This document shows, piece by piece, positions 5,759-32,946 of a DNA stretch of 61,414 nucleotides (within the stretch, counting starts at the first letter, position 1; every line of letters starts with the position of its first letter). The notes beneath the pieces were generated by a model, which worked only from the letters and a program-made list of their open reading frames with translations, did no database searches and was not told the DNA's origin. The position numbers were made by a program, and so were the translations under genes. The stretch spans positions 1 to 61,414 of the IMG/VR virus record IMGVR_UViG_3300027733_000059. One strand, 5' to 3'. Source of the DNA: a virus. Its lineage: Duplodnaviria > Caudoviricetes.

Positions 5759-6736
5759 TTACGCGACGATTGTGTTCCAGAAATAACCGAGGTCAGATGC
5801 AATTACCTTGTTATCGAAAGCCATTTCTGCTTCGATACGGTCTGACTTGATTGATTCCATACGGAACTGTGAAGTACCGATTGTCTGTCCTAGTCCGCCT
5901 GAAACACCTGTCCAAGAGAAGGTGTAACCAGCAGAAGGAGTTAGTAGTCCTGGGTTTGGAGCAACGTGTGTTAGTAGAGCGCCCTTGCCATAAGCAAAGC
6001 CGTAAGCCTCTGATGCACCTTCGTTGTTCGTAGCCTTGACTGCCTTAGCAACCATAACGCGAGGGATGTCGAACATTGCTGCCAACATATCTGTTGTGAT
6101 TGTCTGTGAAGATGTGTACTTGATACGGTCTACCAAGTCAGGGTGATTCTTCAACTGACGGAATGTTTCGTAGCCAAGAACAAGTGTATTGGCTTCCATT
6201 CCTGTGTTTGAAAGAATCTCGCTCTTACCCGCTTCAATATCATTGATTGGGTCAGATGAAGTGTAGTCAGACCATTGCTTTGTCTGACCTGATGATGGAG
6301 TACCAGCAACACCTGTTACATCGTCTGCCCATACACCTGTTGTGAAGAAATCAGAAACGAACTGAAGTTCACGACGGAGCATTAGACGGCGAGTAACGAA
6401 CTCTGTTGCCTCACGAAGAGGATTCAAAGGAGCGTCTGCGTTTGCAGTTGTTTGGTCATCAACATCTTTGTGGAAAGCCCACACGTCTGCTGAATATGTA
6501 CCTGTTGAAAGGTTGTAACCTCCACCAGCAGATTCAGTTCCAGGCGCACGGCGTTGAGCCTCATCGCGGAACCAATCGTTCTTGGTGTAAGTAAAGAATT
6601 TGTCAGACTTCTTATCCACAGGAATTACTGGGAATACCTTGTCTGCAATGAAGTTGTCCTGATTTTGTAGGTATGCAACTGAGATGTTAGTCAGAATTGC
6701 GTCTACGTGGACGGAGTTAATATGTGGCTGTGGCAT
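5759..6736 (-). CDS. Major capsid protein
   Basis: 325 aa; VDAILTNISVAY...FIADKVFPVIPVDK and LKNHPDLVDRIKYT are typical of this MCP family; follows scaffold and cement. Confidence 0.9.
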   Translation of the reverse strand: MPQPHINSVHVDAILTNISVAYLQNQDNFIADKVFPVIPVDKKSDKFFTYTKNDWFRDEAQRRAPGTESAGGGYNLSTGTYSADVWAFHKDVDDQTTANADAPLNPLREATEFVTRRLMLRRELQFVSDFFTTGVWADDVTGVAGTPSSGQTKQWSDYTSSDPINDIEAGKSEILSNTGMEANTLVLGYETFRQLKNHPDLVDRIKYTSSQTITTDMLAAMFDIPRVMVAKAVKATNNEGASEAYGFAYGKGALLTHVAPNPGLLTPSAGYTFSWTGVSGGLGQTIGTSQFRMESIKSDRIEAEMAFDNKVIASDLGYFWNTIVA

Positions 6737-7149: not shown

Positions 7150-7947
7150 TTAGGCACCTTTCTCGGATAGGTATTGGCTGTAAAGGTCAGGGTTCTTTGT
7201 AGCAACATCAGCGAGCGCTTGCTCGAATGACTTTGCTACACCCTCTTCAACGGCTGACTTAGCAAGCGTAGTCATACGCTCGTAAGCATTGCCTGATTTG
7301 AAGTCCGCAGATTTGCCGATTTCTGCAAAAATAGAGGCTGATTCAGCCTGTGCATTGACAGATGCAAGTAGTTCTTCAACTGACTTTGCTAGGTCTGCAT
7401 CTACACTTGATAGACGGCGAAGTGCTGGTCCAACTTTTTCTGCATCGAGATTGAGGTTTGCCCAACCCTTTGCTTTTTCAACTGCTTCTGCATCAGCGTG
7501 AGCATCGCGTTCCTTTTGTAGTTCGGCGGTTGCTTCTTCTGCTTGCTTGCGGAAGTTTTCAATCATTTTGACGACTGACTCAGGCGCGGACTTCATATAG
7601 TCCATCTCCTCAGAGGATTCTTCTTCCATCTTCTTCTTTTTCTTTTCTTCTTCGGACATTTCAGCGTCCGCAGAAGCCTTGGCTAATGCCTCTTCAAGTT
7701 CAGAGATGCGAGCCTTAGCGATGGTTAGTTCCTCAGTAGGATTTACAACCTGCTCTTCAGTAGCCGTGGTAGATGTATCCTCCATTGTGGAGTCCTCCTC
7801 GGTGAGCGATTCGTCTAAAACCCTCTGAACTTCAGATTCTTCGGCGGACTTCATTACAAGCCAACCTTCGTGTAGATGAGCGGGATGGTCTACCCCGCTA
7901 GTTTCCTCAATGGCTAAATTCACCATTTTGCGAGTACGACCAGCCAA
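7150..7947 (-). CDS. Capsid scaffolding protein
   Basis: Acidic coiled-coil; C-terminal NPDLYSQY; many phi-x-K-[SA] sites; TTG start with AGGAG RBS. Confidence 0.8.
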   Translation of the reverse strand: MAGRTRKMVNLAIEETSGVDHPAHLHEGWLVMKSAEESEVQRVLDESLTEEDSTMEDTSTTATEEQVVNPTEELTIAKARISELEEALAKASADAEMSEEEKKKKKMEEESSEEMDYMKSAPESVVKMIENFRKQAEEATAELQKERDAHADAEAVEKAKGWANLNLDAEKVGPALRRLSSVDADLAKSVEELLASVNAQAESASIFAEIGKSADFKSGNAYERMTTLAKSAVEEGVAKSFEQALADVATKNPDLYSQYLSEKGA

Positions 7948-8555: not shown

Positions 8556-8947
8556 AGTGCTGAAGCCTTATGCCCTACAAGAGTTTCTGTTTCTTCGCCA
8601 TCTTTATAGATACGAATAAGAACTGCTGGGTCATCTTTTTCAGCCTTAATGCTAAATGATGATTTTGGAATTCCAAGAACTCCATCGCGCATAATATGTT
8701 CAATCTTGCCTTGTGCTGTTCCACCTGATGCTTGCCAAGAAACCATATCGCCAACCGTTAATCCTGAAGCCTTTTTCATTGCATAAGCCATATCTCGCAT
8801 AGCCTTTTCAATCATTGATTTAGCGTAACCCTTAAGACCTGCGATTCCCTTTTGATTGACCTGTTCCTCAATCATTGCGTACTCGTCGTCTTTCATATTT
8901 TTCATAGGACCATTGCGGAGTTCTTTGAGAATCTTTTTGTCTTTCAT
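8543..8947 (-). CDS. Head-module protein with a C-terminal Tudor/SH3-like domain (DUF2945/Hva1-Tudor-like)
   Basis: LTVGDMVSWQASGGTAQGKI...LVGHKASALKK; ATGA overlap with the protease stop. Confidence 0.65.
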   Translation of the reverse strand: MKDKKILKELRNGPMKNMKDDEYAMIEEQVNQKGIAGLKGYAKSMIEKAMRDMAYAMKKASGLTVGDMVSWQASGGTAQGKIEHIMRDGVLGIPKSSFSIKAEKDDPAVLIRIYKDGEETETLVGHKASALKKA

Positions 8948-9645
8948 TTAGTTTCCTTTGGCTTTTTTTTCTTAGGATTCATAATTGTATCAACGTGAAC
9001 ATCTGTAGCAGTCGGGTCGTTTTTTTCCATATCTACATATAGGCGCTCTGCTCGTCCACCAATTGAATAGCCAAGGATTTCCCCACGTTGAATCTTTTCC
9101 CACGCCCAATCCTCCCAAATAACACCAAGAAATACTGTGTTTGCTGGATAAGTATGATTGACCATAATTCCGCTTGGGGTTGTAATTGGAACTGTTAGTT
9201 CGTATGGAAATGCCATAACTTCAACCCACTCACCTGCAACAATGTCGCGATTATGTTGTAATCGAATACGACGGTCATTGCTTCGGACATAATCCCAAAC
9301 TGCTCTTTGCAACTCCTCGGCATCTGTCCACTCATTGTGTGCATCGAGACGGTCAGGAATATACATAGCGCCAAGTGTGTATTTCTTTTCGCCTTCAGCC
9401 TTAGATACTTCATAAGAGCCGATTGATTTAGCAACATCATTGAAGGCAATTGGGAAAGCCTTTTGAGCCAACTCGAAAGTAATCTCTTCGAGGTTGGCTT
9501 CGCCATCTACTAAATACTGTGCAATATAGGTACTCGGGGTCCAGTTAGGCGCATCCCAGCGCTCTTCAAGGATTCGGTTAGATTCGACATTGAAGCGCCA
9601 CAGAGTATGTGGCTCATTACGGTAAAAGTTTACAAAATATCGCAA
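8944..9645 (-). CDS. Prohead serine protease (XkdF-like) with an N-terminal immunity-like domain
   Basis: YIPDRLDAHNEW...LQH...WEKIQRGEILGYSIGG; probable TTG start at 9645 after GGAGG. Confidence 0.8.
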   Translation of the reverse strand: MRYFVNFYRNEPHTLWRFNVESNRILEERWDAPNWTPSTYIAQYLVDGEANLEEITFELAQKAFPIAFNDVAKSIGSYEVSKAEGEKKYTLGAMYIPDRLDAHNEWTDAEELQRAVWDYVRSNDRRIRLQHNRDIVAGEWVEVMAFPYELTVPITTPSGIMVNHTYPANTVFLGVIWEDWAWEKIQRGEILGYSIGGRAERLYVDMEKNDPTATDVHVDTIMNPKKKKPKETK

Positions 9646-9649
9646 TTTG

Positions 9650-11854
9650 TTATGCCCTCCTCTCAGGGGATAGTTTACCAACCCCAGTTGATTTTATCAA
9701 GCCAGCCTGTTGAGCCGTCTCGAACTGTTGCATAATCAAAGTACCGACGCCAAGAATAGTTGCATAGTTAGATGGGCGAGGAACTCGGGTCGCTATCTTT
9801 ACCATTCTGTCCCAAGAACTACGGCGCTCGCCATCATCTGTGGATTTTCTGTAAATCTCATAAATATCGTGAAGAGCCTTTTCCTTAACTTGGAATGACT
9901 TCGGAGTATGAATCTGTAGTTCAACTTTAATACCATCGCGCTCTGCCTTTATGTTTACACCATCATAAGGGTCGCCTGATTGCCAAAAATTCTTAACTCT
10001 AACTTTCCATCCAGTTGCTTCAAATGCTGTAACGGCAGATTGCAATGTACCTGCGTAATCGGCATCTTTAACTGAAAGTGTGTAACGGTTGGCGTCAGAG
10101 ATTTCTTCTGATGCTTTCTTTCTATCACCTTGGTATCCCTGCTCGGCGTCTAAGTCAATCTTTCGAGCAAGAGAATCTGTAGATTTAACTCTTTGTGAAA
10201 GACCTTCAAGTTTTGCGCCTGACTGTTGTGCAATGCCTTCAACTAATTTTGTAATTACTGGTTCTGCTGCAACTGCTTTCTCACGAACTGCGCGAGCAAG
10301 TGCAATTGCTTCTTTTGATTGCCCCTGCTCAGGTTCTTTATCTGCAACCATATTGTTAGCCCACGCACCGTGCGTCTTTTGGTCGTGCGAGCCGTGCTTT
10401 TCAAGAGGTTCCCAAATAAATGATTTTTTAGCAGGTGCGTCAATTGCTTGACCTTCAAAACCATTATCCGCAGCCCACTTTAACGAAATATCTAATGCTT
10501 CTTTTGCATTTATTGACAGACGATAAACAGGCAACTCAGTTCCAGGATTATCAAAAGAAAAAGCAACAGCAGCGCCCCAAGTATGGTGTCCATCAATAAC
10601 ATAACCATCTTTAGAAATGAGAATTCTTTCATCTTTTGGAATCTTGCCATCTTCTTGAAATTTATTGTAAATGGCACCTGAACGAGAAGCGGAAATTTCT
10701 TTCTGAACTGGCTTTAGGGTTGTTGGGTCAATTTTTTCTTTTTCGGCGGTAACGCCTTGTTCGGCTTCAATCTCTGCCAAAAAGCGAGCGCGTTCTTTAC
10801 CAGGAATTTGAGGCATATCTTTGCGAGCAATTCCCATACCCTCATCGCCATAGAGCAATGTTCCCTTGATACTTAACTCTGTTAAGTCAGGGTGGTCGGT
10901 TCTCTTAGATGCCTTCATTAAAAATGCGGATAAGTTTTCAGGCTCAACTTCAGGGTGTCCTCCAGCCAAGATTTCCTCAGCGATTCCATCAGCCCAACTG
11001 CCGTGAGTTTTTTGGTCGTGCTTTCCTGGATTATGTTTTGCAACTTCTTCTTTCTCGGCGCGAGCAACCATTGACTCAGCCCACGCGAATCCTGCATCTC
11101 CGCCCCAAGCGTCCCAAGCGACTCGACCCGCTGACGGATAACCCTTTTCTCCTTGGCTAAATCCAACTGCGTTCTTATCAACTTCGTGACGAGAAAAGAA
11201 AGATTTCATACGCTTTAAAGTATCTAGTGAGATTGATTCACCTGATGCTAACTGTGATGCACGATGACGACCAACTGAAGTGAAACCGCCTCCAGCCTTA
11301 CCCTCGCTAATCCAATCAAGCGCACGGCGAGCAGCATCTCGAACTGTTTTTGGTGGAGTGTTATCTGCCTTTGAAAAACGGTGAATTTGGTCAAGGCGTT
11401 CTTGAGCCTTTTCCTTTGATGGATAGGTTCCAAACTTGCGTCGTCCCGTCGAATCATAAACCGTGAACTCGCCATCCTCTTCACGAATCATTTTCTCAAA
11501 TGGGTCAAGAGGAATCTCAATTGGCTCGATACGCATTTCATAACCTTGAGAAGTTAGGAAAGTCTGTACATTGCCCACATTGCTACCGCTGGATTTAATA
11601 ACCTCTGCGACCATATCGGCTGGTAACGAAGAGCCAAGCGATGTCAGGTCTACGTCATTGATTGAATCAACGAGGATTTCATAGGCATCCCAATCATCCT
11701 TTGGAGCCTCCATCTTGCGACGAGCCAACTCATTGAGGATTGTGTGGTGAACTTCGATTGTCGCTGGTGAGGCTTCAGACTTATGGATACGCTGATGCAG
11801 CGCGAGTAGTCTCTCAGCGCTTAAAGAAATTAACTTTGGGGCTATATCCGCCAT
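9650..11854 (-). CDS. Tagged polyprotein 4: small head-associated domains, ParB/Srx-like module, RelA/SpoT-like alarmone synthetase module
   Basis: ILISKDGYVIDGHH; RVKSTDSLARKI...DANRYTL...YDGVN...ELQIHT; two HDQKTHG tags. Confidence 0.8.
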   Translation of the reverse strand: MADIAPKLISLSAERLLALHQRIHKSEASPATIEVHHTILNELARRKMEAPKDDWDAYEILVDSINDVDLTSLGSSLPADMVAEVIKSSGSNVGNVQTFLTSQGYEMRIEPIEIPLDPFEKMIREEDGEFTVYDSTGRRKFGTYPSKEKAQERLDQIHRFSKADNTPPKTVRDAARRALDWISEGKAGGGFTSVGRHRASQLASGESISLDTLKRMKSFFSRHEVDKNAVGFSQGEKGYPSAGRVAWDAWGGDAGFAWAESMVARAEKEEVAKHNPGKHDQKTHGSWADGIAEEILAGGHPEVEPENLSAFLMKASKRTDHPDLTELSIKGTLLYGDEGMGIARKDMPQIPGKERARFLAEIEAEQGVTAEKEKIDPTTLKPVQKEISASRSGAIYNKFQEDGKIPKDERILISKDGYVIDGHHTWGAAVAFSFDNPGTELPVYRLSINAKEALDISLKWAADNGFEGQAIDAPAKKSFIWEPLEKHGSHDQKTHGAWANNMVADKEPEQGQSKEAIALARAVREKAVAAEPVITKLVEGIAQQSGAKLEGLSQRVKSTDSLARKIDLDAEQGYQGDRKKASEEISDANRYTLSVKDADYAGTLQSAVTAFEATGWKVRVKNFWQSGDPYDGVNIKAERDGIKVELQIHTPKSFQVKEKALHDIYEIYRKSTDDGERRSSWDRMVKIATRVPRPSNYATILGVGTLIMQQFETAQQAGLIKSTGVGKLSPERRA

Positions 11855-11885
11855 ACCGCAATGATAGCGGATAGGTTTACAACTG

Positions 11886-12032
11886 TTATTTAGTTTCTTG
11901 AACTGAGGTTAGTTTTTGTTCCACTACCTTGTCCAAGAAAGCAATCTCGTTATCGTCAGGCAAGCCTTCCATCTCAACAGGCATCGAGGCGTGAAGTTTT
12001 GATAACGCGTCTAATCTATCTTGTCTGCTCAT
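11886..12032 (-). CDS. Unannotated 48-aa protein (MSRQDRLDALSKLHASMP...)
   Basis: ATG 4 nt after the 12037 stop; fills the intergenic gap; no strong RBS. Confidence 0.55.
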   Translation of the reverse strand: MSRQDRLDALSKLHASMPVEMEGLPDDNEIAFLDKVVEQKLTSVQETK

Positions 12033-12036
12033 AGGG

Positions 12037-14670
12037 TTAGTTTACCGCAGGAGCGGGCTTTTCGCGAGGGGTGCCGTCGTAGACCAAGCCATCACCATCA
12101 CGGTCAATTGGACCCTGTTGGATTGTGCGACCTTCTTGGCTCAATCCCTTTTGATACTTCATATTGAGGCTATCTAGCAATCTTGCCCCAGCCCAAGAAT
12201 ACACGGGCTTGCCAGTAATTTGATTAGTGCCTGTCTCAAATCTATCGCCATACCCAATCATCAAGAAATCATTTGGAATAGGGAAATCATCCGAGTTAAT
12301 TGTTTTTGTTGAACCGCGGAAGGTGGTTGATGTTGGGTCATATTCTGTAACCATTTTTGAAACTAAAGAATCAAACTCAACTCGGTTTGCTGAACCCTCT
12401 GCAAAATCAGCGGAATTGTACATTCTGCCTTTTATCAACTCTCGCACATTTTGACTCATATATCTTTCATCAAAATCAAAACCTGATTTAGCCCAATGGC
12501 GAGCGCCATCCCAGGCTGTACCCACATCAATTCTTCCAATTCCCACAGCCACATACCAAGCCTCTTGTTGGGCTATAAACTTTGAACCAAATCCAACTCC
12601 AGCGTAATCATCGTCCATTTTGAATAGGTCGTGTTCAACAGCCCAAATTTCATTGCCATCCTTATCTTGGCTTCTATAGAAACTGCGTTGGAACTCACCA
12701 GCAGGGAAACCAGCATCATCCGTAACTTCGCCTTGTACGACTAATCTCTCGCCATCAAGATAAATGTTTGTTGTCGATGAACTAAGGGTTGTGGCAACTT
12801 CACCCTGAGCATTTTTTACTTCATAGGTCATTCCAAAAACTTCATCGAACGGACCGTGCAAATCTTCAGGATTAAATTCTTCGCCACCATTTTGTTCTTG
12901 CCACAATTGCGCCAAGGTTCCATCATCGCTTTCGATAAATTCCTGAACCATTTCGTCTTGAATTTTTTCGTAAAGGCGGTTTCTTAATTCTTCATTTGCT
13001 TTGTCGGTAGCCCCTTGGTCCTCATACTCATATTTTGCTTCCTGGAAAGCCTCTTCAACTCTTTCATCAATACCATCAGTTGCTTGGGCATACATTCCTG
13101 AGTCATTATTAACCATAAGTGTTAAATCTGACATATCAGCCTGTTCCGCAGGGGTCAGAGCGTTTTCTAAATCTTCTAATGAAGGACCAACGCCATCCAT
13201 TGTGTTAATTAGTGCTTCATCTTCCGCGGAGACACCACGCGCCCAATTACCGTGACTAGATTGGTCGTGTTGTTCGTGCTTTAAGACTGGCTTTAATCCA
13301 GCAGCAAAACGAATAACTTTAATCTTTTGAAATACCGCTGGAACGGACCAAAACTCTTCAGGGAGCAAGGCAACCTTTTGGTCAGCGAACTGCTTGCCTC
13401 TGTTATTAAAGAATGAATTCTGTCCGCGTGTTTCTGTTGTTAGCGCAGCGCGAGCCTTTTCTGTAAACATCTGAGAGTGGTGAACCCAAGCAGCCTCTTC
13501 GCCATCTTGACCAAATCCTCGACCAGTAGCAGCGTGTCCAAAGTAATCGTGAACTGCTCGGAATTTATTGTTTTGTGTATCTGAGAAAAGCGGGTGTGCG
13601 CCTGTTGTCTCTGTTTGCAAAACCTTTAACACCCCACGGCTGACATCATCAAACATTTCCTTTGATGTCTTATATGGGTCCTCTGCAACGAACTCAACCT
13701 TGACTCCTAGAGTCTTGGTCATAAAATCAAACTGCTCTTCTACTTCAGATGCCAGCGCTTCGTACTCATCGACTGCATCTCTATCCATCTTCGGAAGATT
13801 CTCATAGACATCAGCGATACGCGCTGCTCGTTCGCGATTGGCTACAACTTTGGTGTAATCAATTGTTTCGTCAGGATTTAAACCTTTTTTGAAAGCGTAT
13901 TCTTTTGCGCCATCTCGGGCGCCCTTGACTGAATCGGTTGGGTATCTATCCCCTGCCCAATTACCGTGAGTTGCTTGGTCGTGTTCACCTTGTCGGTGTT
14001 TTTGGACCTGGTACCTGCCAAGGCAGATATGGGGATTTAGAGATTGCCCTCTATCGCTTGCAAGATTTCGTCCACGAAGGCGTCCTTCTCCTTCTCGGTC
14101 ATTTCCTTGACTGGCTTCGGAGTTTCCACCAAGACGGGCTTTGTTTGTTCGCTCATCGACCTCATCCTTCATATAAATATACGAGTCATTGATGACATCG
14201 TAGATTGCTTTTTGTTCGTTTTTAAATCCTGCTCGTACACCCTCTGACCGAGAACTGTATCTTCTCGAGACATCTAAGTAAAGTTTTCCTTCCTCAACCC
14301 AAGCGCCGAAGAAACTGCCCTTGTTATCAAGCAACTCAGCGTGGTCGTTGATGTAATCCCTCAAAGCAGTCCTCAAAGCAGCCCTAGAAGCCTTCAGAGG
14401 CGCGAAATCAAGCACTCTCTCGGCTCCTACATCAGAGGCGATAAAGCCATCTTTAGCAGATTGTTTGGTGCGGATGTCAATGCTGAATCCAGGAGTTTTT
14501 TTCTCACTCAACTTGTCTATCAATCCCGTGATAGTTCTACCTTCAACGGTTTGCCCATCAACTGTGAGGTTTGCCCAATTACCGTGAGTCTTTTGGTCGT
14601 GCGAGCCGTGCTTTTCAAGGACGAGAGAAAGCCCTTTAGAGGATGAGTATTGAAATTTTTCTAGGTTCAT
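12037..14670 (-). CDS. Tagged polyprotein 3: unknown module, HDYFGH module, acidic linker plus GNAT-like module
   Basis: Three tags; RAVHDYFGH...GEEAAW; YAGVGFGSKF...GARHWAKSGF resembles GNAT motifs A/B; probable start MNLEK (ATGA overlap with 14667..15476). Confidence 0.8.
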   Translation of the reverse strand: MNLEKFQYSSSKGLSLVLEKHGSHDQKTHGNWANLTVDGQTVEGRTITGLIDKLSEKKTPGFSIDIRTKQSAKDGFIASDVGAERVLDFAPLKASRAALRTALRDYINDHAELLDNKGSFFGAWVEEGKLYLDVSRRYSSRSEGVRAGFKNEQKAIYDVINDSYIYMKDEVDERTNKARLGGNSEASQGNDREGEGRLRGRNLASDRGQSLNPHICLGRYQVQKHRQGEHDQATHGNWAGDRYPTDSVKGARDGAKEYAFKKGLNPDETIDYTKVVANRERAARIADVYENLPKMDRDAVDEYEALASEVEEQFDFMTKTLGVKVEFVAEDPYKTSKEMFDDVSRGVLKVLQTETTGAHPLFSDTQNNKFRAVHDYFGHAATGRGFGQDGEEAAWVHHSQMFTEKARAALTTETRGQNSFFNNRGKQFADQKVALLPEEFWSVPAVFQKIKVIRFAAGLKPVLKHEQHDQSSHGNWARGVSAEDEALINTMDGVGPSLEDLENALTPAEQADMSDLTLMVNNDSGMYAQATDGIDERVEEAFQEAKYEYEDQGATDKANEELRNRLYEKIQDEMVQEFIESDDGTLAQLWQEQNGGEEFNPEDLHGPFDEVFGMTYEVKNAQGEVATTLSSSTTNIYLDGERLVVQGEVTDDAGFPAGEFQRSFYRSQDKDGNEIWAVEHDLFKMDDDYAGVGFGSKFIAQQEAWYVAVGIGRIDVGTAWDGARHWAKSGFDFDERYMSQNVRELIKGRMYNSADFAEGSANRVEFDSLVSKMVTEYDPTSTTFRGSTKTINSDDFPIPNDFLMIGYGDRFETGTNQITGKPVYSWAGARLLDSLNMKYQKGLSQEGRTIQQGPIDRDGDGLVYDGTPREKPAPAVN
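14037..14156 (-). CDS. Candidate overprinted 39-aa ORF nested out of frame in polyprotein 3
   Basis: MSEQTKPVLVETPKPVKEMTEKEKDAFVDEILQAIEGNL; AAGGA 8 nt upstream of ATG. Confidence 0.5.
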   Translation of the reverse strand: MSEQTKPVLVETPKPVKEMTEKEKDAFVDEILQAIEGNL

Positions 14671-15476
14671 TGTTTTACCAATTCTATATCCCAAACCTTG
14701 CCACGTTGAGCAACGACTTTAAACTTACTTCCTCGAGGCATAAGGAACTCAGCCTCAGTCGTAGAAGGTGTCCATCCATACATAGGTTCGTGATAGCCCG
14801 CAGGAAAGATTCCTTTTGTACCAGCGGGTAACTTCATACGGAAAACTAAACCGTCGTAATAAGGTTGAGAACCGCCAAATTGTTGAGCAACTCCAGCATC
14901 AATTGTCGTGGAGGTGTAGCCCTTATCTTCCCAAGTATCTCCAACTTTGAGAGTTTCAAAAAACTTTAATCCGTTGCCTTTGACTCCCCGATAGGTAACT
15001 AACTCCTCGGATAGCGGTGGAGCAACATCCATCGCCTTATCAAGTAAATCAATTGTAGATTTATAGCCATCTTCACTTATCTGAGGGTCGCGCAGAGCCT
15101 CATTCATATCGTAGCCAAGGCGACTTTCATAATTGCTTATCGCTCCTGAAAACTCAGGATGAGCAGCCTCGGTGAAACCCTTTAATCGTTGGCTAAATAG
15201 TTTCTCCATAAAATAAACTTCTTTATCTGTATCAGACGCAAAAACTTTTATTTCATCTTTGAACCAAGCAGCAAGATTTTCATAATTGCCTGAAGCCCAG
15301 TTACCGTGGGTTTTTTGGTCGTGTTCACCGTGCTTTCGAACTTCTTCTTCTTGAGGTTTAGGAATTAAATCAGGATGAATTGGGTCAATAATTTCCCAGC
15401 CGTAATCTTTAGTCTCCAAGAGGTACACCTGCCTCTCTGTAAGCGGTCTCAAGTCCGTCTGCGAAACTTGCTCCAA
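14667..15476 (-). CDS. Tagged protein 2: ADP-ribosyltransferase (VIP2/C3-like R-S-E type)
   Basis: MNEALR...TYRGV...KGYTSTT...EAEFLMPRGSKFKV; one tag; probable TTG start near 15419. Confidence 0.85.
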   Translation of the reverse strand: MEQVSQTDLRPLTERQVYLLETKDYGWEIIDPIHPDLIPKPQEEEVRKHGEHDQKTHGNWASGNYENLAAWFKDEIKVFASDTDKEVYFMEKLFSQRLKGFTEAAHPEFSGAISNYESRLGYDMNEALRDPQISEDGYKSTIDLLDKAMDVAPPLSEELVTYRGVKGNGLKFFETLKVGDTWEDKGYTSTTIDAGVAQQFGGSQPYYDGLVFRMKLPAGTKGIFPAGYHEPMYGWTPSTTEAEFLMPRGSKFKVVAQRGKVWDIELVKQ

Positions 15477-17730
15477 ATAATTTACTTGTTATGAATATAT
15501 GATTTCGAGCGAACTCTACTCCGTGTCCGCCGTGAGGTGAAGTAGCACTAATCGTTGTAGCATAATGAGCAATTTCGTGAACAATAGTAGGTTCCGCTTT
15601 TGAATAACCTCTGCTTACTCTCAAAATACTTACGGGTAGGTCGCCCTTAAATCCAATTTGATACGCCCCAGCCTCATTAGCAGATGAGACTTTAACCTCA
15701 AGATTATTTCCAGCAACCCCACCTTTTCCAAATGCCTCAACAAACCAATCTTGTCTTATTACATCTCTTACATAACCATTAAGACCTCGAGGCGTTCCAT
15801 CTAAATGCTTTTGTCCTAAAGGCGAAATTAGCGAGGTTGTAACTTTTTTAGACCAAGCAGTAAAATCTTTTGAATACTGTTTGTAGGCTTTGTCGTAATC
15901 AGCGTAATTAGTAAATTGTGTGCGATTAGGGGCAGAAGGCATATCTGCATTTTTATCTTGAATTTGATTATGATTTTTTTCTTCAGCAGCATAAACTTTG
16001 CTTACAAGAGGGTCAGGTTGTTTTTTCAATTCAAACATCTCGCGATGGCTTAATCCGCTTCCACCTTTTTGACCTGTAGCCCAGTTACCGTGAGTGGACT
16101 GGTCGTGTCCTCCGCCTTCGTGCTTTACAACACCACTCCAGCCTTTTGCATCATCTGTCAAAGAAAAAGAATGGTCAATTTTGATACCGTCTTGAGAATA
16201 AGAACGAGCAAAATTTAACATTGCAGTAGCAATGCCTTGGCGTTTGTATTCAGGTTCTACTTGAATTCTATCTATTATCGCTCCCGCTTCAGGTACAAAA
16301 TTATTAGGGCGACTAGATTCAAGGTCAGCAATTTGTTTCACTCCTCCATCAACAAAAAGATAACCTTTTGTAGTCATCGAGATATTTCCGTCTGCTGTTT
16401 TTTCGTTGTCGTGAAGTAGTTTTATTTTTGTGCCATCTTTAGTTTCATAAATGGCTGTCACTCTATTAGATGTCATTCCATCGTCATCGGTAGGATAAGA
16501 CTTATGTTCAATTTGTGTAATTCGTTGCTGAACTTCAATTTCTTTTGCGGAGCGCGCTGAACTATTAGCCCAAGAGCCGTGCGTCTTTTGGTCGTGTTCT
16601 TGGTGCTTTATTACATCTTCTTCATCACGGATAAAAGGAATAGTGTTAAATAAAGTATGAAAAATCATACCTAGTTCAACGCCTTTTTTAAGCGTATGAG
16701 GCTCAATCATTTTCACTTCAATGACCGTAAATGTTGTAGGCTCTTTGCGAGTCCAAGAATTAACTGTGATGTCTTGACCATCTTTAATTGGTCTTGTCTG
16801 ACGGTCATTTGTATACTTTACCGTAGAAGTCTCAATTTTAGAAAAGTTTCCAGTAATGGCTCCATCTCTAATAATTTCATAGCGGACTTTTGCTGCTGGG
16901 TCATTACTATCCATACTGTCCCAACTACGGTCCCTTGGGTCCTGGAATCTATACCCAGTTACTAAATCTTCGCCAGGTCTATTTAATTTGAAAGTTCTTG
17001 CTGAGACGGCACCTCTAGCCCAGTAAGGAGTAGTTACTGTTGTAATTCCTACTACTTGAAATTTACCGCTAGTAATAGTTTCAAAATCTGACGGGTAAAA
17101 ACTTTTCTCAGGCTTGACTGAGACACCTTTTGCGCCTTCTTGAATTTTTAGAATTACTTTTGTGTCGCTTGGTGTGTAAGACCTGTCTGCTGCATACCAT
17201 TGAGCCACACCCAAAGACCGAGTGGTTGAAACCAACGGCATATCAATTGTGTCACCCTCTTTGAGATTAGTGAACTGCTCAAGCAACGCTTTTGATTCTG
17301 CATCACCCGCTGCCATACCTCTATACAAAGTTGGTTGCGGACGACCATTGGCAATTGCTGTTAGAACTGCCTCGGTTTGATTTCTTACTGCGCCCGTTGA
17401 GGATGCACCAAAACCGCGTTGAGTTAAATAATTCTCAGAGCCACCAACATCTTTATCACTTTTAGGAACTGGCAAGCCAAGCATCTCGCCCGCGTACTGA
17501 CGGTATAAATCTACAAACTGGTCGCCATCGACACCGTGTTCCCAGTTTTCCCAAAATTTATCGGTGGTTCCAGTTGCGTTGCGTGGAGCGTCAGGAACTT
17601 TATCTTTTGGACTCCATCCCGATAACTCAGAGGTAACGCCTGTAGCCCAGTTTCCGTGTGTCTTTTGGTCGTGTTCTTGATGCTTGATAACTGGACGAAG
17701 CCCTGGCTCAAATTTAATCACTAGACTCAT
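15409..17730 (-). CDS. Tagged polyprotein 1: ADP-ribosyltransferase-like, GNAT and HEXXH zincin modules
   Basis: LYRG...LVSTTRS...DFETITSGKFQV; IDRIQVEPEYKRQGIATAML; IVHEIAHY...HGGHGVEF; three tags. Confidence 0.8.
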   Translation of the reverse strand: MSLVIKFEPGLRPVIKHQEHDQKTHGNWATGVTSELSGWSPKDKVPDAPRNATGTTDKFWENWEHGVDGDQFVDLYRQYAGEMLGLPVPKSDKDVGGSENYLTQRGFGASSTGAVRNQTEAVLTAIANGRPQPTLYRGMAAGDAESKALLEQFTNLKEGDTIDMPLVSTTRSLGVAQWYAADRSYTPSDTKVILKIQEGAKGVSVKPEKSFYPSDFETITSGKFQVVGITTVTTPYWARGAVSARTFKLNRPGEDLVTGYRFQDPRDRSWDSMDSNDPAAKVRYEIIRDGAITGNFSKIETSTVKYTNDRQTRPIKDGQDITVNSWTRKEPTTFTVIEVKMIEPHTLKKGVELGMIFHTLFNTIPFIRDEEDVIKHQEHDQKTHGSWANSSARSAKEIEVQQRITQIEHKSYPTDDDGMTSNRVTAIYETKDGTKIKLLHDNEKTADGNISMTTKGYLFVDGGVKQIADLESSRPNNFVPEAGAIIDRIQVEPEYKRQGIATAMLNFARSYSQDGIKIDHSFSLTDDAKGWSGVVKHEGGGHDQSTHGNWATGQKGGSGLSHREMFELKKQPDPLVSKVYAAEEKNHNQIQDKNADMPSAPNRTQFTNYADYDKAYKQYSKDFTAWSKKVTTSLISPLGQKHLDGTPRGLNGYVRDVIRQDWFVEAFGKGGVAGNNLEVKVSSANEAGAYQIGFKGDLPVSILRVSRGYSKAEPTIVHEIAHYATTISATSPHGGHGVEFARNHIFITSKLFGASFADGLETAYREAGVPLGD

Positions 17731-18734
17731 TGTGTTCCCCTATCAGGTGGAACTATCACCATTGTGCAACGGCAATGAGGGTGAACAATAGGCGCCTCAA
17801 GCCCGATAGAGAACACACCATTCCAAGGTGCCAACTCACCATCAAGCGGAGCGCATATCTCGCAAGTGCGCTCATCTTGGGCTGTTACCCACATCTTTTG
17901 AGCGCTAGGGTCTATGAAACCCGCTTCATCGGCTTGCTTCCAGCCTTCATAGCGACCTTCATTTTGTGCAATCTGAATCTCGGTGCGGGCAATCATTGTT
18001 GCTCGGGCAGAACGCAATCTATCTGCGTATTTAGATGCGGAGGTGGCAGATGCTTCGCGGGCTTTTGCCTCTTTCATCCCGCCTTTAATCAAACGCTCCA
18101 ACTCACGCTTTTCAAACTTTGTTACTGCTTCCGCCCACTTTGGGTGTAAACCAATAATGTTTTTAATACGGCGGGCTGTAGCGCGATAATCTATTTGTTC
18201 ATTAAATGAATCAATAATAATCTTACGAATTGCAATGCGTGTTAATTCATCAATGCTAACAATTAACTGCCCTGCTCTTTTAGATGCAAAGGCTAAAGAA
18301 TTAGGATTTGTTTTATTAAACGACATTGAGAATGTAACTGGAGGTGGCGTTGGGCTTGCCCAATCAGGAATCTTTGTAAAATCCATATTAGCCATAGGCG
18401 CCTTGTTTGTAATCTTTACAGGCTTAGGCAGAAATGCAGGTAAGAATAATTTAGGTGCAATAGATTGAATCTGTTGTATTGCCTCTTTACCGCCTATTTC
18501 GATAGATGTCATCAAGGCATCTTCAATCTGCTTTCTATTTCCTGCAACAGTAATTGCATTAAGAAGTCGATTTAAAGAATCAGGGTCCAGGCGTTGAATG
18601 ATACGAGCCAACTCTTCAACCTTGATTGTGTTGGTTGATTTACGAATCGCTTCGTAGAGAACGCGGGCTAACGCCTGTTCTTCCGCTGTTAATGGATTAC
18701 GACGGTTTCCGTCTCTGCCAAAGATTAGAGGCAT
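17727..18734 (-). CDS. MuF / SPP1 gp7-family head morphogenesis protein, short form
   Basis: RATMIARTE...KMWVTAQDERTCEICAPLDG...HPHCRC; directly after the portal. Confidence 0.9.
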   Translation of the reverse strand: MPLIFGRDGNRRNPLTAEEQALARVLYEAIRKSTNTIKVEELARIIQRLDPDSLNRLLNAITVAGNRKQIEDALMTSIEIGGKEAIQQIQSIAPKLFLPAFLPKPVKITNKAPMANMDFTKIPDWASPTPPPVTFSMSFNKTNPNSLAFASKRAGQLIVSIDELTRIAIRKIIIDSFNEQIDYRATARRIKNIIGLHPKWAEAVTKFEKRELERLIKGGMKEAKAREASATSASKYADRLRSARATMIARTEIQIAQNEGRYEGWKQADEAGFIDPSAQKMWVTAQDERTCEICAPLDGELAPWNGVFSIGLEAPIVHPHCRCTMVIVPPDRGTQ

Positions 18735-18736
18735 TG

Positions 18737-20152
18737 TTAATCCACATCGCCGTCTAGCGGTTCTGCTCCTTCAGGAATCTCTAACTCTTCTTCCAATGAT
18801 GGAGGTGCATCGAATCCAGCGTCATCTGCCCCTTCAGGCATAGGAGGCATACCGAAGTTTGCTCCATCGTGTTCTGCTGGAGGTAAACCTGCCAACTCAC
18901 GAAGATAATCTTCCAACTTAGGGTCAGGCATAAGAACGCCCGCTTGAGCCAACTTAGTTACGAAGTCTGAAATCTCAGTTAAATCAACGTGGCTTACTTC
19001 ACCGTAAGTTAGGTAAGGAGCGCGAGATATATCCATTCCGTTTAACTTCATCAAGCGAGGAATAGCGTATTGATTCATTACTTCAGCAATGTTTTTAGCA
19101 ATTGAATCAACTGCCATTGACCATAAATCCATCTTTGATGCGCCAAGAGCGTAAGAGCCAACTCTGTCTGAGCCTAGAAGGATAAAGTCTGACAGGATTG
19201 ACATTGACATACGTTGGTCATAGCGATTGATAATCTTGTCTGTATCGAATTGACGAGAACCGCCTGATGAGAGCAACTGTAAGTCAAACATCTTGTGTCC
19301 AGCATCGTCATACATCGCTGGCATAACAATGCCTTCTTGTTCATTGCGCTTGATAGATGTAACAATGCTTTGAATCGAGGCTAATACTTGCTGCTGCTCG
19401 ACTGTTGCTGATGAAGAAAGATATTCAGGTGGTAGGTAGGCAACTGGCAAACCTGCTAAGTCGCGCTCAATACCGATTGCTTCAATTTCTTCAATACGGC
19501 GCTTGAAAAACCAAGGACGGTAAGCATTACGAAGAATGGAGCGACCTTCAGGGTTATTCTTTGTTGTTACTGTACGGAAAAGCAAAGCCTTATCAATTGG
19601 AATTGTATGTATTCCACCCGTTGATGGGTCTACTTGCACCATCGCTTGAATTCCGCCGTCTGCATCAATCTCCCAACGGAATAAAGTTTCCTGGGCGCGA
19701 ATAGGCATCTTGCGCCAACCGATTTTTCCGTCGTTGTGCTTTGAGCGTTTCTTTGGGTCGTTGCCATCGCCCTTGCGGACTTTGTAAACAATTTCGTGAT
19801 ACGAGAATCCAAAAACTAACATTGAAAGAATTTGTGAAAGTGTTGCATCCCAGGAATCGGACATATCGTGAATACACGATTCAATAAATGCTGCTGCTTC
19901 TTTATCTTCAGGCTTTACATCGCCGTCTGATGAATCATCGCTATATGGGTCTACGCGCCATTCAAGACGAGTAATAACTTTTTCAACTGCAAACAGCATT
20001 GACCCGATTGTTGGGTCGTTATCTGCCATTTCGCGGTATGTCTTTGCACCGCGTATGCCTCTAAGATTGACGAGAAATTCTTCATAAACTGTTCCGCCTG
20101 AACGGCGTAAACCAGTTGAGCCAAACTCCTGTAGGTCAGGTCTTTCTGCCAT
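18737..20152 (-). CDS. Portal protein (DUF935 / Mu gp29-like)
   Basis: 471 aa; NNPEGRSILRNAY...IERDLAGLPV...GSYALG; acidic tail. Confidence 0.9.
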   Translation of the reverse strand: MAERPDLQEFGSTGLRRSGGTVYEEFLVNLRGIRGAKTYREMADNDPTIGSMLFAVEKVITRLEWRVDPYSDDSSDGDVKPEDKEAAAFIESCIHDMSDSWDATLSQILSMLVFGFSYHEIVYKVRKGDGNDPKKRSKHNDGKIGWRKMPIRAQETLFRWEIDADGGIQAMVQVDPSTGGIHTIPIDKALLFRTVTTKNNPEGRSILRNAYRPWFFKRRIEEIEAIGIERDLAGLPVAYLPPEYLSSSATVEQQQVLASIQSIVTSIKRNEQEGIVMPAMYDDAGHKMFDLQLLSSGGSRQFDTDKIINRYDQRMSMSILSDFILLGSDRVGSYALGASKMDLWSMAVDSIAKNIAEVMNQYAIPRLMKLNGMDISRAPYLTYGEVSHVDLTEISDFVTKLAQAGVLMPDPKLEDYLRELAGLPPAEHDGANFGMPPMPEGADDAGFDAPPSLEEELEIPEGAEPLDGDVD

Positions 20153-25982: not shown

Positions 25983-28217
25983 TTGCGCTTTTTCCGCATA
26001 ATCACGGTCTGCTTCCTAGTCTTTTGGTGGGCTGTTTTGCCTACCGACTCAGCCTCGGCAGTATGTGTGACGACGGCTGAATCCGTCGCTATTGCCTCCG
26101 ACGCTGCAACAGTTTTAGCGTCATCGGATTCGGCTACGGCGACCTCAACTCCAATAATCGTCCAAGATACCTGTGGAGGCGATGATGTCTCTTACCAAGT
26201 GGCATTGCCAACAGCGGTCAATTTCCAGGGCGTCGAATACACGGCTGTTTATGCCACAACAAACTCAACAATTGTTTTTGGTCAGATAGATAACGATTAC
26301 GCCAACTATCCCAATACGCCTTCGATTTCTGTTAATGCTTATGATTGGGTTGTCCTTGACCCTGCTAATCCAAATCCAACAAACTCTTATCCTGCTGGAT
26401 GGAGAGCAGCGGATGAGCATTTAATTATTACTTCTAGTCAAGCAGGGTTTCAAGTTGATTTAGCCGTGCGCCCTTATGGACAAAATGCTTCAGCCAATCC
26501 TTTATCGACAATCGTTGTTACTGCATCTATTAACGCAGATAGCACTTTAACGATTACTTATCTTTCAGATGTTCAACAAGGATTAAATACTCGAACAGGC
26601 GTTCGTTTGCCCGATGGTCGTGTCGTTAGTTTAGAAGAGGCGGGTCTAACTCGGGTTTATGTTGCTCCTGTTGTAACTGCTGAGGCAATTGTTGAGCCGA
26701 CCCCAACACCCAGCCCCAGCCCTTCGATAGAGCCGACTCCTGAGCCTTCTCCGACATCTGAGCCTTCTCCATCTCCGAGCGTTGAGCCAACGCCGACTCC
26801 AACTGCTGAACCTTCACCTTCTCCCACACCAACTGAGAGCGCAAGTCCTCAACCTCAACCAACATCGGAACCATCGGCTTCACCGACTCCAATCCCTGAA
26901 CCTTCGCCAACTCCGACTGCTCAACCTCAACCGACCCAGGGACCTGCGCCGTCCATACCTGAACCCACACCATCGCCTACTCCTTCACCTGATACCAATA
27001 CAACAGCGCCAGTACAGCCAACGCCACAGCCAACCCCAATGCCATCTCCTACCCCAACTCCAATTCCGTCACCTGAACCAAGTCCCTCACCAAGCCCTGT
27101 TCCGAATCCAGTCGATACCCCTTCGGTAGCGCCGACTCCCGTGCCTGTTCCTGAACCCAGCCCTGAGCCTTCTCCTGTTCCTGAACCCACACCGAATCCG
27201 ATTGTTCGACCTGAGCCAAGTCCAAATCCCGTAGAGCCACCCGCACCTGTCCCTGAACCTGAACCGCTCCCCGAGCCTGAGCCAACTGCTCCGCCCGTTG
27301 AAGAACCTGCACCTGAACCGATTGAACCCCCAGCGGAAACTGTCCCGCCAGGTCCCACACCCGAACCGCTACCACCTACTGAACAGCCAATCGAAGAACC
27401 ATTGCCACCAGCAGAAGAACCGCCGTTACCTCAAGAACCCGAAATGCAAGAGCCACCTGTCGAGGAACCACCTGCTCCCGAACCACCAGCCGAAGAACCA
27501 CCAGCACCAATCCCAGCAGAGCCAGCGCCACAAAGTCCGTCCACAGAATCATCTGAAACCTCCGAATTAGTAAATGACATTACTGAAGATGGAAAGATTA
27601 CACCCGCTGATGTTGAAGCGGTAGTTGATTCATTGATGGCGGATGGAAAAGTTAGCCAAGCCGAAGCAACTGCCTTGATTGAAACTTTAAGCAAAAGCGG
27701 TCCTCTTAACACAGCCGAGAAAGACCTTATTGTTTCCGTCCTTGATGCGGATGGAAAGATAACTCAAGCAGAAGTTAATAATCTTTCAGAGAATCTTTCA
27801 TCTGATGGAAAATTTACATCTGCCGAAAGAGAGTTTGTTGCAGATGTACTTATTGAAGCAGCAAACGGTGAAGCCGTAACTGTTGAATCAATTGCCGATG
27901 CTGGAATCTCGTTAGAAGATTTACCTGACGAGCAACCTGTTGAAGTTCGCCAGGATGAAAATGGTAACGAGGTTGTTATTACAGCCGAGGTTGCTGTTGC
28001 TTTAGAACTGCTTACCTCAGCAGCAGATATTGTTTCAGCAATCTTTGAAAGCCCAGGACAATTGCTCTTCGCTATCGGAAACCTTGGGGCAGATATGTCT
28101 CCTGAAGAACGCGAAGAGGCAAGTAAAACAGTTATTGCTGCAACAATCATCGGCAATATTGCTACCACTACAATTGCTACCGCCATTGGTGGCATTGGAT
28201 ATAGGAGACCAAATTGA
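25983..28217 (+). CDS. Exported or membrane-anchored protein with a long Pro-rich stalk
   Basis: Signal-peptide-like N-terminus; globular domain; ~280 aa of PT/PS/PE repeats; DGK[IV][TS] repeats; hydrophobic C-terminus ending RRPN. Confidence 0.8.
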
Positions 28218-31448: not shown

Positions 31449-32375
31449 ATGGAACACGCAATAATTGTTCATTCGCCTGAATACGCGAACTGGATATTCG
31501 ATAAGTCGCACCCTACACAGGGACGACGATTTCTTCACGGGCGCAATCAGATTATGTTGGAGGCTCAAAAGCGCCATCTCAACGTAGATGAAATCCATCC
31601 TGAAATGCCACACACCGATGACCTATTGCTTGTTCACGACCCAATCTATGTTCACGATGTCACCATCAAAGGTGAATCAGATGAATGGGATGGTCAGCGT
31701 CACGACCTTGGTGAATTAGCAAAGTTATTTGTCGGCGGTACTTTAACTGCCCTGGATGTTTTGCTTGATAAGAAAACTTTGCTTGCTATTAACTTGGCAG
31801 GTGCAAAGCATCACGCGATGCGTGATTACTCAAGCGGATTCTGCATCTTTGCTGACTTTGCTATCGCTGCAACGAAGGCAACTGAATTAGGCGAGCGCGT
31901 AGCAATCTTTGATATTGATGCCCACCACGGCGACGGTACCGAGATGTTACTTAAGTCTAATAAAAATGTTATGACATTCTCGGTTCACCAATACGGAATC
32001 TTTCCAGGCACGGGTTTAATATCCGATTACAAAAATCGCGCCTATAACTTTCCGCTTACACACGGTTCAACAGACGAAGATTTAATGTCTGCAACTGAAG
32101 CCTTCTTCGAGGCTTGCGATGAATTCAAGCCTACGATGATTTTCGTAGCGTGTGGAGCGGACGGTCTCAAGGATGACCCGCTAAGCGAACTCGCTTACAC
32201 ACCAGCGGGCTATTGGAGGTCACTCCGAGCCGTTAGAGAGCAATTCCACGATATGCCCATCCTTCTAGGTGGGGCGGGTGGTTACTTGCCTGATACGGGA
32301 ACTCCCGAGGTTTGGCGTAATGCAATGCTCGCGCTTACGGCGGTTCAAACCGAGGTAGTTATTCCCGACTTGTAG
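31449..32375 (+). CDS. Zn-dependent lysine deacetylase (HDAC/AcuC family)
   Basis: GAKHHA...SGFCIF...DIDAHHGDG...HQYGIFPGTG...GADGLKDDPL...GGY. Confidence 0.92.
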   Translation: MEHAIIVHSPEYANWIFDKSHPTQGRRFLHGRNQIMLEAQKRHLNVDEIHPEMPHTDDLLLVHDPIYVHDVTIKGESDEWDGQRHDLGELAKLFVGGTLTALDVLLDKKTLLAINLAGAKHHAMRDYSSGFCIFADFAIAATKATELGERVAIFDIDAHHGDGTEMLLKSNKNVMTFSVHQYGIFPGTGLISDYKNRAYNFPLTHGSTDEDLMSATEAFFEACDEFKPTMIFVACGADGLKDDPLSELAYTPAGYWRSLRAVREQFHDMPILLGGAGGYLPDTGTPEVWRNAMLALTAVQTEVVIPDL

Positions 32376-32385
32376 ACTACGGGCT

Positions 32386-32946
32386 ATGACAACTCTCGTC
32401 GGTATCCAGGGACGCAATTGGGCGCTCTTGGGTGCCGACACTCGCATTGCAGATGATTCAACAATTTACAGAATGGCAAAAGGTCATTCGAAAATTATTG
32501 AACACGATAACTTTACAATCGCGTGTGCAGGTGATGTGCGAGCAATAAATATTTTGCAATCGCAACTCAAATTGCCTAAAACTTTTATTGCAAAAGATGA
32601 TGGACATTTCATAACTGGATTCCTTATCCCTGCAATGCGTAAGGCTTTTGCTGATGCGGGCTACGAGAAAACCTCGGAAGGGCAATCAAGCCACGAATCT
32701 GAATTTCTTATTGTTTACAACGGAAAGATTTATGAAGTCGGCTCTGATTATTCTTGGGTCCAAGATTCTCGCGGTATCTACGGACTTGGCTCAGGTGGGG
32801 CTATTGCTCTTGGTGCCTTGGCTTGCCTCAGCGGAGATTTAGTAACTCGAGCAGAGGCGCGTAAGTGGGCTACTAAGGCTCTCGAGATTGCTAGTGAATA
32901 TAACTCGGATACCGCTCCGCCGTTTCATATTGTAATTAAAGAATAA
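32386..32946 (+). CDS. Proteasome-beta/HslV-like Ntn hydrolase
   Basis: MTTLVG N-terminal Thr; GADTR; AGD; GSGG. Confidence 0.85.
   Translation: MTTLVGIQGRNWALLGADTRIADDSTIYRMAKGHSKIIEHDNFTIACAGDVRAINILQSQLKLPKTFIAKDDGHFITGFLIPAMRKAFADAGYEKTSEGQSSHESEFLIVYNGKIYEVGSDYSWVQDSRGIYGLGSGGAIALGALACLSGDLVTRAEARKWATKALEIASEYNSDTAPPFHIVIKE

Follow-up and report, generated by a model that had tools for sequence, protein, structure and literature searches.

How can a cell that assembles phage particles survive the synthesis of a toxin that is to be packaged with the phage DNA, and how is this toxin re-activated for delivery? For phage-delivered toxins, be they located in MuF or in polyvalent proteins, both points are unsolved, and they are raised again by the head gene region of the phage IMGVR_UViG_3300027733_000059 (IMG/VR; Duplodnaviria; Caudoviricetes). 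The window analyzed here is this complete virus record of 61,414 bp (CheckV completeness 100%). In it, a cargo protein of 734 amino acids (aa) ends in a module related to alarmone synthetase toxins of the Apk type, and the polypeptide encoded directly downstream starts with a domain of 73 residues, in the following called domain A, which remotely resembles the immunity proteins IapK and Tis1 and is fused to an XkdF-type prohead protease. We propose that domain A is the candidate immunity of the Apk-type toxin. To this reading, which is well supported by sequence comparison with related loci, we assign a probability of about 0.7.

The toxin module of the cargo protein

From the N- to the C-terminus, the 734-aa protein consists of an N-terminal module, a linker with the motif HDQxxHGxW (HDQ linker; aa 279), a ParB-like module, a second HDQ linker (aa 490), and the toxin module, which comprises residues 486–734 (9653–10399, minus strand). 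All strings quoted in a preliminary description of this DNA were found again, the translation of the module containing RVKSTDSLARKI, DANRYT, KNFW, YDGVN, ELQIHT and LHDIYE. Against the sequences of the Protein Data Bank (PDB), the module matched 8VX3 ('SaSAS') with an E-value of 2.6e-13 as a single sequence and of 1.7e-22 with a profile of 27 relatives. Because of this match to a solved alarmone synthetase, the quoted set of motifs is not a chance occurrence. Further matches were obtained to the C-terminal Rel-like part of a XopAD model (E 2.1e-26) and, weakly, with the toxin profile to Tas1 (6OX6_A; E 0.047). By tblastn, the module showed 39.5% identity (E 2e-21) to the C-terminus of MuF 'minor head' proteins of S. 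pneumoniae prophages; such C-termini were matched in 35 Streptococcus phage records and also in phages of Pasteurella, Mannheimia, Haemophilus, and Aggregatibacter. These MuF C-termini are the Apk2 toxins of PMC12226406. With the 8VX3, MuF and Tas1 matches, the module is borne out as an Apk2/Tas1/EAS-type alarmone synthetase, in line with the likeness to Apk2/Tas1-type toxins given in the preliminary description.

RelA_SpoT (PF04607) was not matched, the 734-aa protein had no Pfam family at all at E ≤ 0.01 and no Phage_Mu_F match within its ORF, and searching Pfam with the toxin module alone gave only DUF6674 with an E-value of 0.28. A megablast search of the region against isolated phages gave no match, and scanning prokaryote genomes with the toxin alignment returned a single locus, which is located at a contig end.

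In the alignment of 27 sequences, R30, K32, D62, R65, Y105, G107, E120, Q122, H124, and Y140 are invariant. The residues of the motifs R.KS, D..RY, Y.G, E.Q.HT, and H..Y are invariant, too, except for the H of H..Y, which is conserved to at least 90%. We take the invariant residues to be the synthetase motifs syn1–5. Five syn motifs are described in PMC12226406. Conservation extends into a C-terminal tail past the part aligned to 8VX3, where G179, Q184, T188, L194, K196, T198, and V200 are invariant in the same alignment. From these comparisons we conclude that the module is a predicted Apk1/Apk2/EAS-type pyrophosphokinase under purifying selection.

Domain A and its co-variation with the toxin

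The ORF caller had set the start of the protease gene to TTG 9681, which lies inside the toxin gene (ORF 8944..9681). The true start is most likely TTG 9645, in agreement with the preliminary description, because a GGAGG sequence is located 10 nt upstream (9660–9656) and because relatives begin there with M-RYF, mostly with ATG at the equivalent residue. Starting 4 nt past the toxin stop, the gene encodes a polypeptide of 233 residues composed of domain A, a junction, and the XkdF core. It reads ...RYFVNFYRNEPHTLWRFNVESNRILEERWDAPNWTPS...LEEITFELAQKAF...NDVAKSIGSYEVSKAEGE... and then continues in frame into the protease, so that the fusion claimed previously is confirmed, with TTG 9645 as the most likely start. 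The core matched PF14550 (E 7.7e-13; 49 bits versus a curated cutoff of 24) and also the PHROG head maturation protease families. Domain A itself has 14 invariant columns in 27 sequences. XkdF proteases with another N-terminal domain, a 2H phosphoesterase (LigT-like), are present in Microbacterium phage ValentiniPuff (L163:3850–5022) and in Arthrobacter phages, and adding further functions to the XkdF protease by fusion at its N-terminus therefore appears to be a general strategy.

The preliminary description had also suggested that an internal promoter within the last codons of the toxin gene could supply immunity independently. A promoter-like site is present there, yet the 3.4-kb region contains four such sites compared to 4.8 ± 2.2 in shuffled sequences, which is chance level, and the promoter was therefore rejected as evidence. 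Translational coupling would be the simpler way of supplying the immunity domain.

Related loci were collected in two scans of viral contigs (80 loci each), which resulted in 96 non-redundant loci. In 77 of them an Apk module was found together with domain A, each time in frame with the protease (77/77); 12 loci combined a Zeta toxin with a different N-terminal domain of the protease (domain B), three had neither toxin nor N-terminal domain, mixed combinations did not occur (0), and four were without upstream DNA. In the Zeta-type loci (e.g., L041:670–3794 and L074:2087–5175), the Zeta toxin takes the place of Apk as the last cargo module; it was assigned via PF06414 in two cases (E 1.7e-23 and 7e-22) and via 55–73% identity to these two in the other ten. 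The Zeta module of L041 had no PDB sequence match at E ≤ 0.001. Domain B has about 76 residues with the consensus ...SFEETGL...APxG...NEWVGDEYDD..., is unrelated to domain A (hhalign 0.4%), showed no detectable similarity in Pfam, NCBIfam, PDB (sequence) or PHROG, and has only five short homologues. It is a candidate for a new Zeta antitoxin.

In the three loci with neither domain (L121, L122, L123), the cargo protein continues directly into the protease, and in L122 a ParB-like module is followed immediately by the protease core. All three thus encode a polyvalent protein fused in frame to the XkdF core, in L122 (3513–5477) as one polypeptide of 654 aa. Compared with L122 by blastn and blastp, the block 9417–10418 of the window is missing, and this block roughly corresponds to the interval flagged in the preliminary description. 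Neither an Apk module nor domain A was found anywhere in two records of this type (88% and 79% complete), while the same searches in complete genomes of the Apk type yielded exactly one Apk module and one domain A, adjacent to each other, in 5 of 5 cases.

In a quick maximum-likelihood tree of the protease cores, the types are interleaved, and no fewer than two changes each, for the Zeta type and for the type with neither domain, are required by branches with good support. Evolutionary distances were compared for 76 unique Apk-type triples of domain A, toxin, and core. The mean p-distance is highest for domain A (0.48), making it the fastest-evolving part, followed by the toxin (0.37) and the protease core (0.17). 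Distances of domain A correlate with those of the toxin with r = 0.90 compared to r = 0.84 with its own protease core, and the partial correlation of domain A and toxin given the core is 0.74, a value attained in 0 of 999 permutations. The canonical position, the size matching IapK, and the strict co-variation with the toxin type lend support to the earlier proposal of a cognate immunity domain.

A profile of domain A was searched against 1.84 billion representative sequences, yielding a family of 200 proteins at E ≤ 1e-3. Typical members are proteins of about 70 aa; 117 of the 150 members listed have at most 125 aa, and most of these span the whole profile. Pfam searches with 29 of the 33 longer hits revealed four XkdF fusions and 18 proteins without a Pfam family. 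Another five contain, besides domain A, an ADP-ribosyltransferase (ART) module together with an AK site and an HDQ linker. Protein P0103 is a natural single chain of Apk module, domain A, and XkdF, in which the toxin tail runs directly into domain A. P0072, P0076, and P0078 combine domain A with an unannotated domain of some 130 residues that has a CxxC pair and a KISFPNVIK motif, and both orders of the two domains occur.

The product of iapK neutralizes its cognate Apk2 toxin through direct binding (PMC12226406). In the MuF-Apk2 phages, an ORF of 68–72 aa directly follows the toxin, and in three of the four records inspected this ORF is followed by an HD hydrolase, which corresponds to the iapK-aph1 arrangement of PMC12226406. 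Domain A agrees with IapK in place and size, as it starts 4 nt past the toxin stop and has 73 residues compared to 68–72 aa. In direct searches, domain A gave nothing in Pfam, NCBIfam, and PDB (sequence), and its BLASTP comparison with S. pneumoniae IapK was not significant (E 0.56). By hhalign, the enlarged domain A family reached a probability of 60% against Streptococcus IapK and of 86.9% (E 4.2e-6; 60 co-linear columns) against an IapK alignment widened by the ORFs of Javan146, Pmp2, and Aaphi23. In the controls, the probability fell to 0.1% for the reversed alignment and did not exceed 0.9% in 30 column shuffles. All four IapK-position ORFs tested belong to phrog_3514 (E 1e-25 to 1e-35), and phrog_3514 is also the top PHROG match for two of six domain A family members (P0065 and P0074; E ~0.01). 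With the hhalign value and this PHROG match, the resemblance to IapK noted at first sight is supported as a remote one, with scores that are marginal.

A confident AlphaFold2 model of domain A (pLDDT 89.8; pTM 0.77) shows a small alpha/beta fold in which four strands are followed by a helix, a further strand, and two helices. In an exhaustive structural alignment with 48,161 chains, Tis1 in its complex with Tas1 (6ox6_B) ranked third (Z 3.8; rmsd 3.8 Å; 58 of 76 residues). Taken by itself the Z-score is weak, and the match gains its weight from 6ox6_B being the one chain that the immunity hypothesis predicts. In BFVD, a phage protein of 236 aa (A0A1B0XTJ1) with the same N-terminal domain was found (TM 0.89; E 1.5e-6).

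Proposed mode of action and rival explanations

The following course of events may be envisaged. The Apk/EAS-type pyrophosphokinase toxin would be made as the C-terminal part of the 734-aa cargo protein, and domain A, translated from the coupled next cistron, would bind the toxin and keep it inactive in the phage-producing cell. Without immunity, synthesis of (p)ppApp/(p)ppGpp would drain ATP before packaging is completed. In this phage lineage, the candidate immunity domain is not a protein of its own but extends the XkdF prohead protease at its N-terminus. In the procapsid, this protease would cut after the lysine of hydrophobic-x-K sequences (at K/H of the linkers, GLIK/S, VAK/S, and VSK/A; slashes mark putative cuts), thereby freeing the modules and severing the immunity domain, so that the toxin would be armed only in the sealed head and then enter the next host together with the ejected DNA. 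Toxin and candidate immunity domain form one swappable cassette, in place of which relatives have a Zeta module with another N-terminal domain or neither of the two. Blocking of the toxin by bound domain A in the producing cell, severance of domain A at head maturation, and packaging of the toxin with an effect in the next host are all predicted steps.

As for the putative cuts, the modules of the four polyvalent ORFs are set apart by nine K-H-x(1-4)-HDQxxHGxW linkers, each preceded by hydrophobic-x-K (9/9). The HDQ linker is strongly conserved and is also present in related contigs and in P0100 and other family members; processing and metal binding are among its possible roles. At the junction of domain A and protease core, K73, G76, K82, and E84 are invariant across Apk-type and Zeta-type relatives (30/30 for K73 and K82), and the protease is predicted to cut after K73 and K82. 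Cuts at K/H of the linker and at GLIK/S of the toxin tail may be assumed as well. A model of the full-length protease has no secondary structure at residues 69–87, but is poor overall (pLDDT 53). The density of hydrophobic-AK[S/A] sites is raised about threefold in proteins internal to the head (7 in 3,628 aa versus 8 in 12,820 aa), an enrichment that is weak because five of the seven sites fall in the alanine- and lysine-rich scaffold.

Several observations weigh against an immunity function of domain A. The hhalign probability against IapK was only 9.5% with the first, narrow pair of profiles, and single-sequence HMM scores were barely above the best of 2,000 shuffles (12.0/11.4, 13.0/12.3, and 9.0/8.8), with one of the four IapK-position ORFs, that of Aaphi23, scoring below its own shuffles. 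Four of the six family members, including domain A of the window, had no phrog_3514 match at E ≤ 0.1. The Z-score of 3.8 for Tis1 is low and in a range that the aligner calls common, and Foldseek found no PDB match for the domain A model at E ≤ 0.001. Incomplete gene calls from short metagenome contigs may account for some of the 'stand-alone' family members, and searches for the genomic context of free homologues yielded no viral-contig locus for P0082 and nothing usable for P0100 and P0078. One locus from the metagenome scan, considered as context of a free homologue, was spurious and due to a tape-measure match. Furthermore, no Aph1-like hydrolase was found among the 48 further ORFs scanned, and the full-length protease model is too poor to reveal an exposed linker. 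One of 78 Apk-type loci (L024:5980–6213) has an in-frame stop codon in domain A, downstream of an intact toxin module. This stop takes the place of the Tyr in EERWY and may reflect a sequencing error or a defective phage. Since actinophage XkdF proteases bear other N-terminal fusions, the extension could also simply be cargo. Finally, co-inheritance of toxin and N-terminal domain and the correlated distances are expected from linkage, because crossovers are possible only in the conserved flanks of the cassette, i.e. the HDQ linker and the protease core, and the DNA in between moves as a block. Linkage does not explain, however, why each toxin type has its own unrelated domain and why the domain is absent where the toxin is absent.

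This last point also bears on the view that domain A is unrelated to the toxin, being a pro-region, a capsid-targeting piece or a small cargo that co-varies merely as an adjacent recombination block. The conserved sequences flanking the cassette, in which crossovers can occur, agree with this view, as do the unrelated N-terminal fusions of XkdF proteases elsewhere (the 2H phosphoesterase of ValentiniPuff; 'RNA ligase' PHROG families) and the presence of domain A at the N-terminus of ART-bearing cargo proteins. Nevertheless, we consider it unlikely, as a role independent of the toxin leaves unexplained why toxin-free lineages lack the N-terminal domain and still have a conserved protease, why the Zeta cassette has its own unrelated domain, and why domain A resembles IapK and Tis1 with most family members having about 70 aa. 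A toxin-binding domain A could, on the other hand, act chiefly as a packaging adaptor tethering cargo and protease into the procapsid, with neutralization as a side effect or absent. Its covalent link to a protein that is obliged to enter the procapsid would fit this role, as would the natural single chain of toxin, domain A, and protease in P0103 and the relatives without either domain, in which the cargo protein itself is fused to the protease. The latter fusion suggests that coupling of cargo and protease is tolerated or even favored. Such a partner domain is absent from the window's three remaining polyvalent ORFs, though, the remotely similar IapK proteins are inhibitors (PMC12226406), and most domain A family members are free small proteins, so that we give the adaptor role even less credence than the idea of an unrelated block.

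Least probable of all, in our view, is that the module is no toxin here but serves regulated (p)ppGpp/(p)ppApp signalling, for which immunity would be superfluous; its partner domain A would then be regulatory or unrelated. The sequence would agree with pppApp as well as with pppGpp as product, and the locus with a stop codon in domain A and an intact toxin would be compatible with such an enzyme. Yet toxicity in E. coli is described for the exported alarmone synthetase of Streptomyces albidoflavus (SaEAS) when made without its signal peptide (PMC12691689) and for Apk2 toxin domains (PMC12226406), and the alternative module of relatives at the same position is a Zeta toxin.

The immunity reading can be widened to a more tentative model, which we regard as somewhat less probable than its opposite. 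According to this model, the prohead protease would act as a maturation timer for packaged toxins, with each toxin having its own immunity domain, which would be covalently tethered to the protease, would silence the toxin in the producing cell, and would be removed or destroyed only in the sealed procapsid. The principle would be general and modular, Apk and Zeta cassettes being swapped at one site, domain B representing a new Zeta antitoxin family, and hydrophobic-x-K together with KH..HDQxxHGxW serving as processing code.

The head operon and related systems

The toxin-bearing gene is located in the head morphogenesis module alongside portal and MuF genes, as assigned by Pfam and PHROG context. 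This module lies on the minus strand in the order portal, MuF, four polyvalent cargo ORFs, protease, scaffold, and capsid (Table 1).

Table 1. Positions of head-module features and sequence elements in the window. Slashes mark putative cleavage positions.
Feature	Position	Strand	Remarks
Mu-type portal	18737..20152	-	
MuF	17727..18734	-	ORF of its own
Four multi-module ORFs	15409..17730, 14667..15476, 12037..14694, 9650..11854	-	
734-aa polyvalent capsid cargo protein	9650..11854	-	full-length phrog_2859 match
HDQ linkers, hydrophobic-x-K-H-x(1-4)-HDQxxHGxW-A	nine sites, stretch 10991-17673; e.g. 10358-10387, 14572-14601, 16567-16596		
Linker EK/HGSHDQKTHGAW ahead of toxin module	10358..10399	-	one of nine; putative cut after K
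Swappable cassette: linker, toxin module, domain A	9417..10418	-	1,002 nt, missing as one block from L122
Catalytic core, Apk1/Apk2/EAS-type alarmone synthetase (pyrophosphokinase; predicted)	9770..10288	-	8VX3 match, motif residues
Conserved C-terminal toxin tail (...QQFETAQQAGLIK/STGV...)	9653..9769	-	past 8VX3-aligned part; includes invariant K
Promoter-like TTGATA-17-TAAACT with upstream TG	9672..9700	-	inside last codons of toxin; 9/12 positions match
Translational coupling signals	9643..9660	-	GGAGG 9660-9656, toxin stop TAA 9652-9650, TTG 9645-9643
Domain A, IapK/Tis1-like candidate immunity domain, 73 residues	9427..9645	-	N-terminus of protease polypeptide
Junction VAK/SIGSYEVSK/AE, domain A / protease core	9397..9429	-	alignment of 30 sequences; putative cleavage
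XkdF-type (Peptidase_S78_2) prohead protease core with lysine-rich C-terminal tail	8947..9426	-	Pfam match 9043-9411
Small Tudor-like ORF		-	between protease gene and scaffold
Scaffold	7150..7947	-	
Decoration- or scaffold-like ORF		-	between scaffold and capsid
Major capsid protein	5759..6736	-	

In the terms of PMC5512222, the four multi-module ORFs qualify as polyvalent proteins, as they combine several unrelated effector modules per polypeptide in the head region, namely ART, GNAT (weak), ParB-like, and Apk modules. The ART module matched PF03496 with an E-value of 7.8e-15. The 773-aa ORF at 15409–17730 (minus strand) has two weak GNAT matches (E ~1e-3) and a zincin-like HEIAHY motif at its C-terminus, and the R...STT pattern of its first module suggests a second ART-like domain. 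Outside the head module, a gene of the histone deacetylase family (31449–32375, plus strand; PF00850, E 1.3e-56) is followed by a gene with a weak proteasome subunit match (32386–32946, plus strand), a pair unusual in a phage genome. The opposite strand also carries an ORF of 744 aa (25983–28217, plus strand) in the most GC-rich part of the window (GC 0.51 versus ~0.44), for which no Pfam match was found.

Polyvalent proteins are known from phages and conjugative elements as multi-module proteins that are packaged and delivered with the DNA, and RelA/SpoT, ART, and GNAT modules have already been catalogued in them (Iyer, Burroughs, Anand, de Souza, Aravind 2017, PMC5512222). In the passages of that paper considered here, no protease is described as carrying an immunity domain, the arrangement proposed for the window. 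A close parallel is given by the MuF-Apk2/IapK systems (PMC12226406), in which an Apk-type domain (39.5% identity) likewise ends a head-module protein and is followed at once by IapK with its about 70 residues, to which domain A is remotely similar. Unlike MuF-Apk2, the toxin of the window is not linked to a MuF domain, which is encoded separately (17727..18734), but ends a polyvalent protein with HDQ linkers; moreover, the candidate immunity domain is the N-terminus of the prohead protease instead of a free ORF, and no Aph1-type hydrolase is present among the ORFs scanned. To the effector-immunity pair Tas1 (Apk1)/Tis1 of the type VI secretion system (T6SS) of P. aeruginosa (PDB 6OX6), the likeness consists of the weak matches of the toxin (E 0.047) and of the domain A fold (Z 3.8), whereas delivery would occur via the phage head here and by a PAAR/Rhs-type effector of the T6SS there. 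Among solved structures, SaEAS (8VX3) comes closest to the toxin module. It makes both (p)ppApp and (p)ppGpp, and Apk1, Apk2, and EAS enzymes have been placed in one family (PMC12691689, mBio 2025). According to the sections of PMC12691689 concerned with it, SaEAS carries a Sec signal peptide and is not encoded next to an immunity gene, in contrast to the enzyme described here, which is a module of capsid cargo and has an immunity-like domain as its neighbor. The Zeta-type relatives, with a Zeta_toxin module (PF06414) followed by a domain of about 76 residues, recall Zeta-epsilon and PezT-PezA, from which they differ in that domain B is without Pfam, PDB or PHROG similarity and is fused to the protease.

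RelA/SpoT-type polyvalent modules and Apk2-IapK pairs of head modules are already known from the parts of the literature considered (PMC5512222, PMC5576092, PMC12226406, PMC11699363). The literature listings and texts considered contained no account of a prohead protease with a fused immunity domain, of an exchange between Apk and Zeta cassettes at this position, or of the family to which domain A belongs.

The fusion of the candidate immunity domain and the prohead protease suggests that protection is coupled to translation of the head operon and that its removal is coupled to capsid maturation. The three natural alleles (the Apk/domain A pair, the Zeta/domain B pair, and the form without either) represent ready-made controls for experiments. 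With 200 representatives of about 70 residues, the domain A family provides a large set of candidate inhibitors of alarmone synthetases, to which domain B may add a new Zeta antitoxin.

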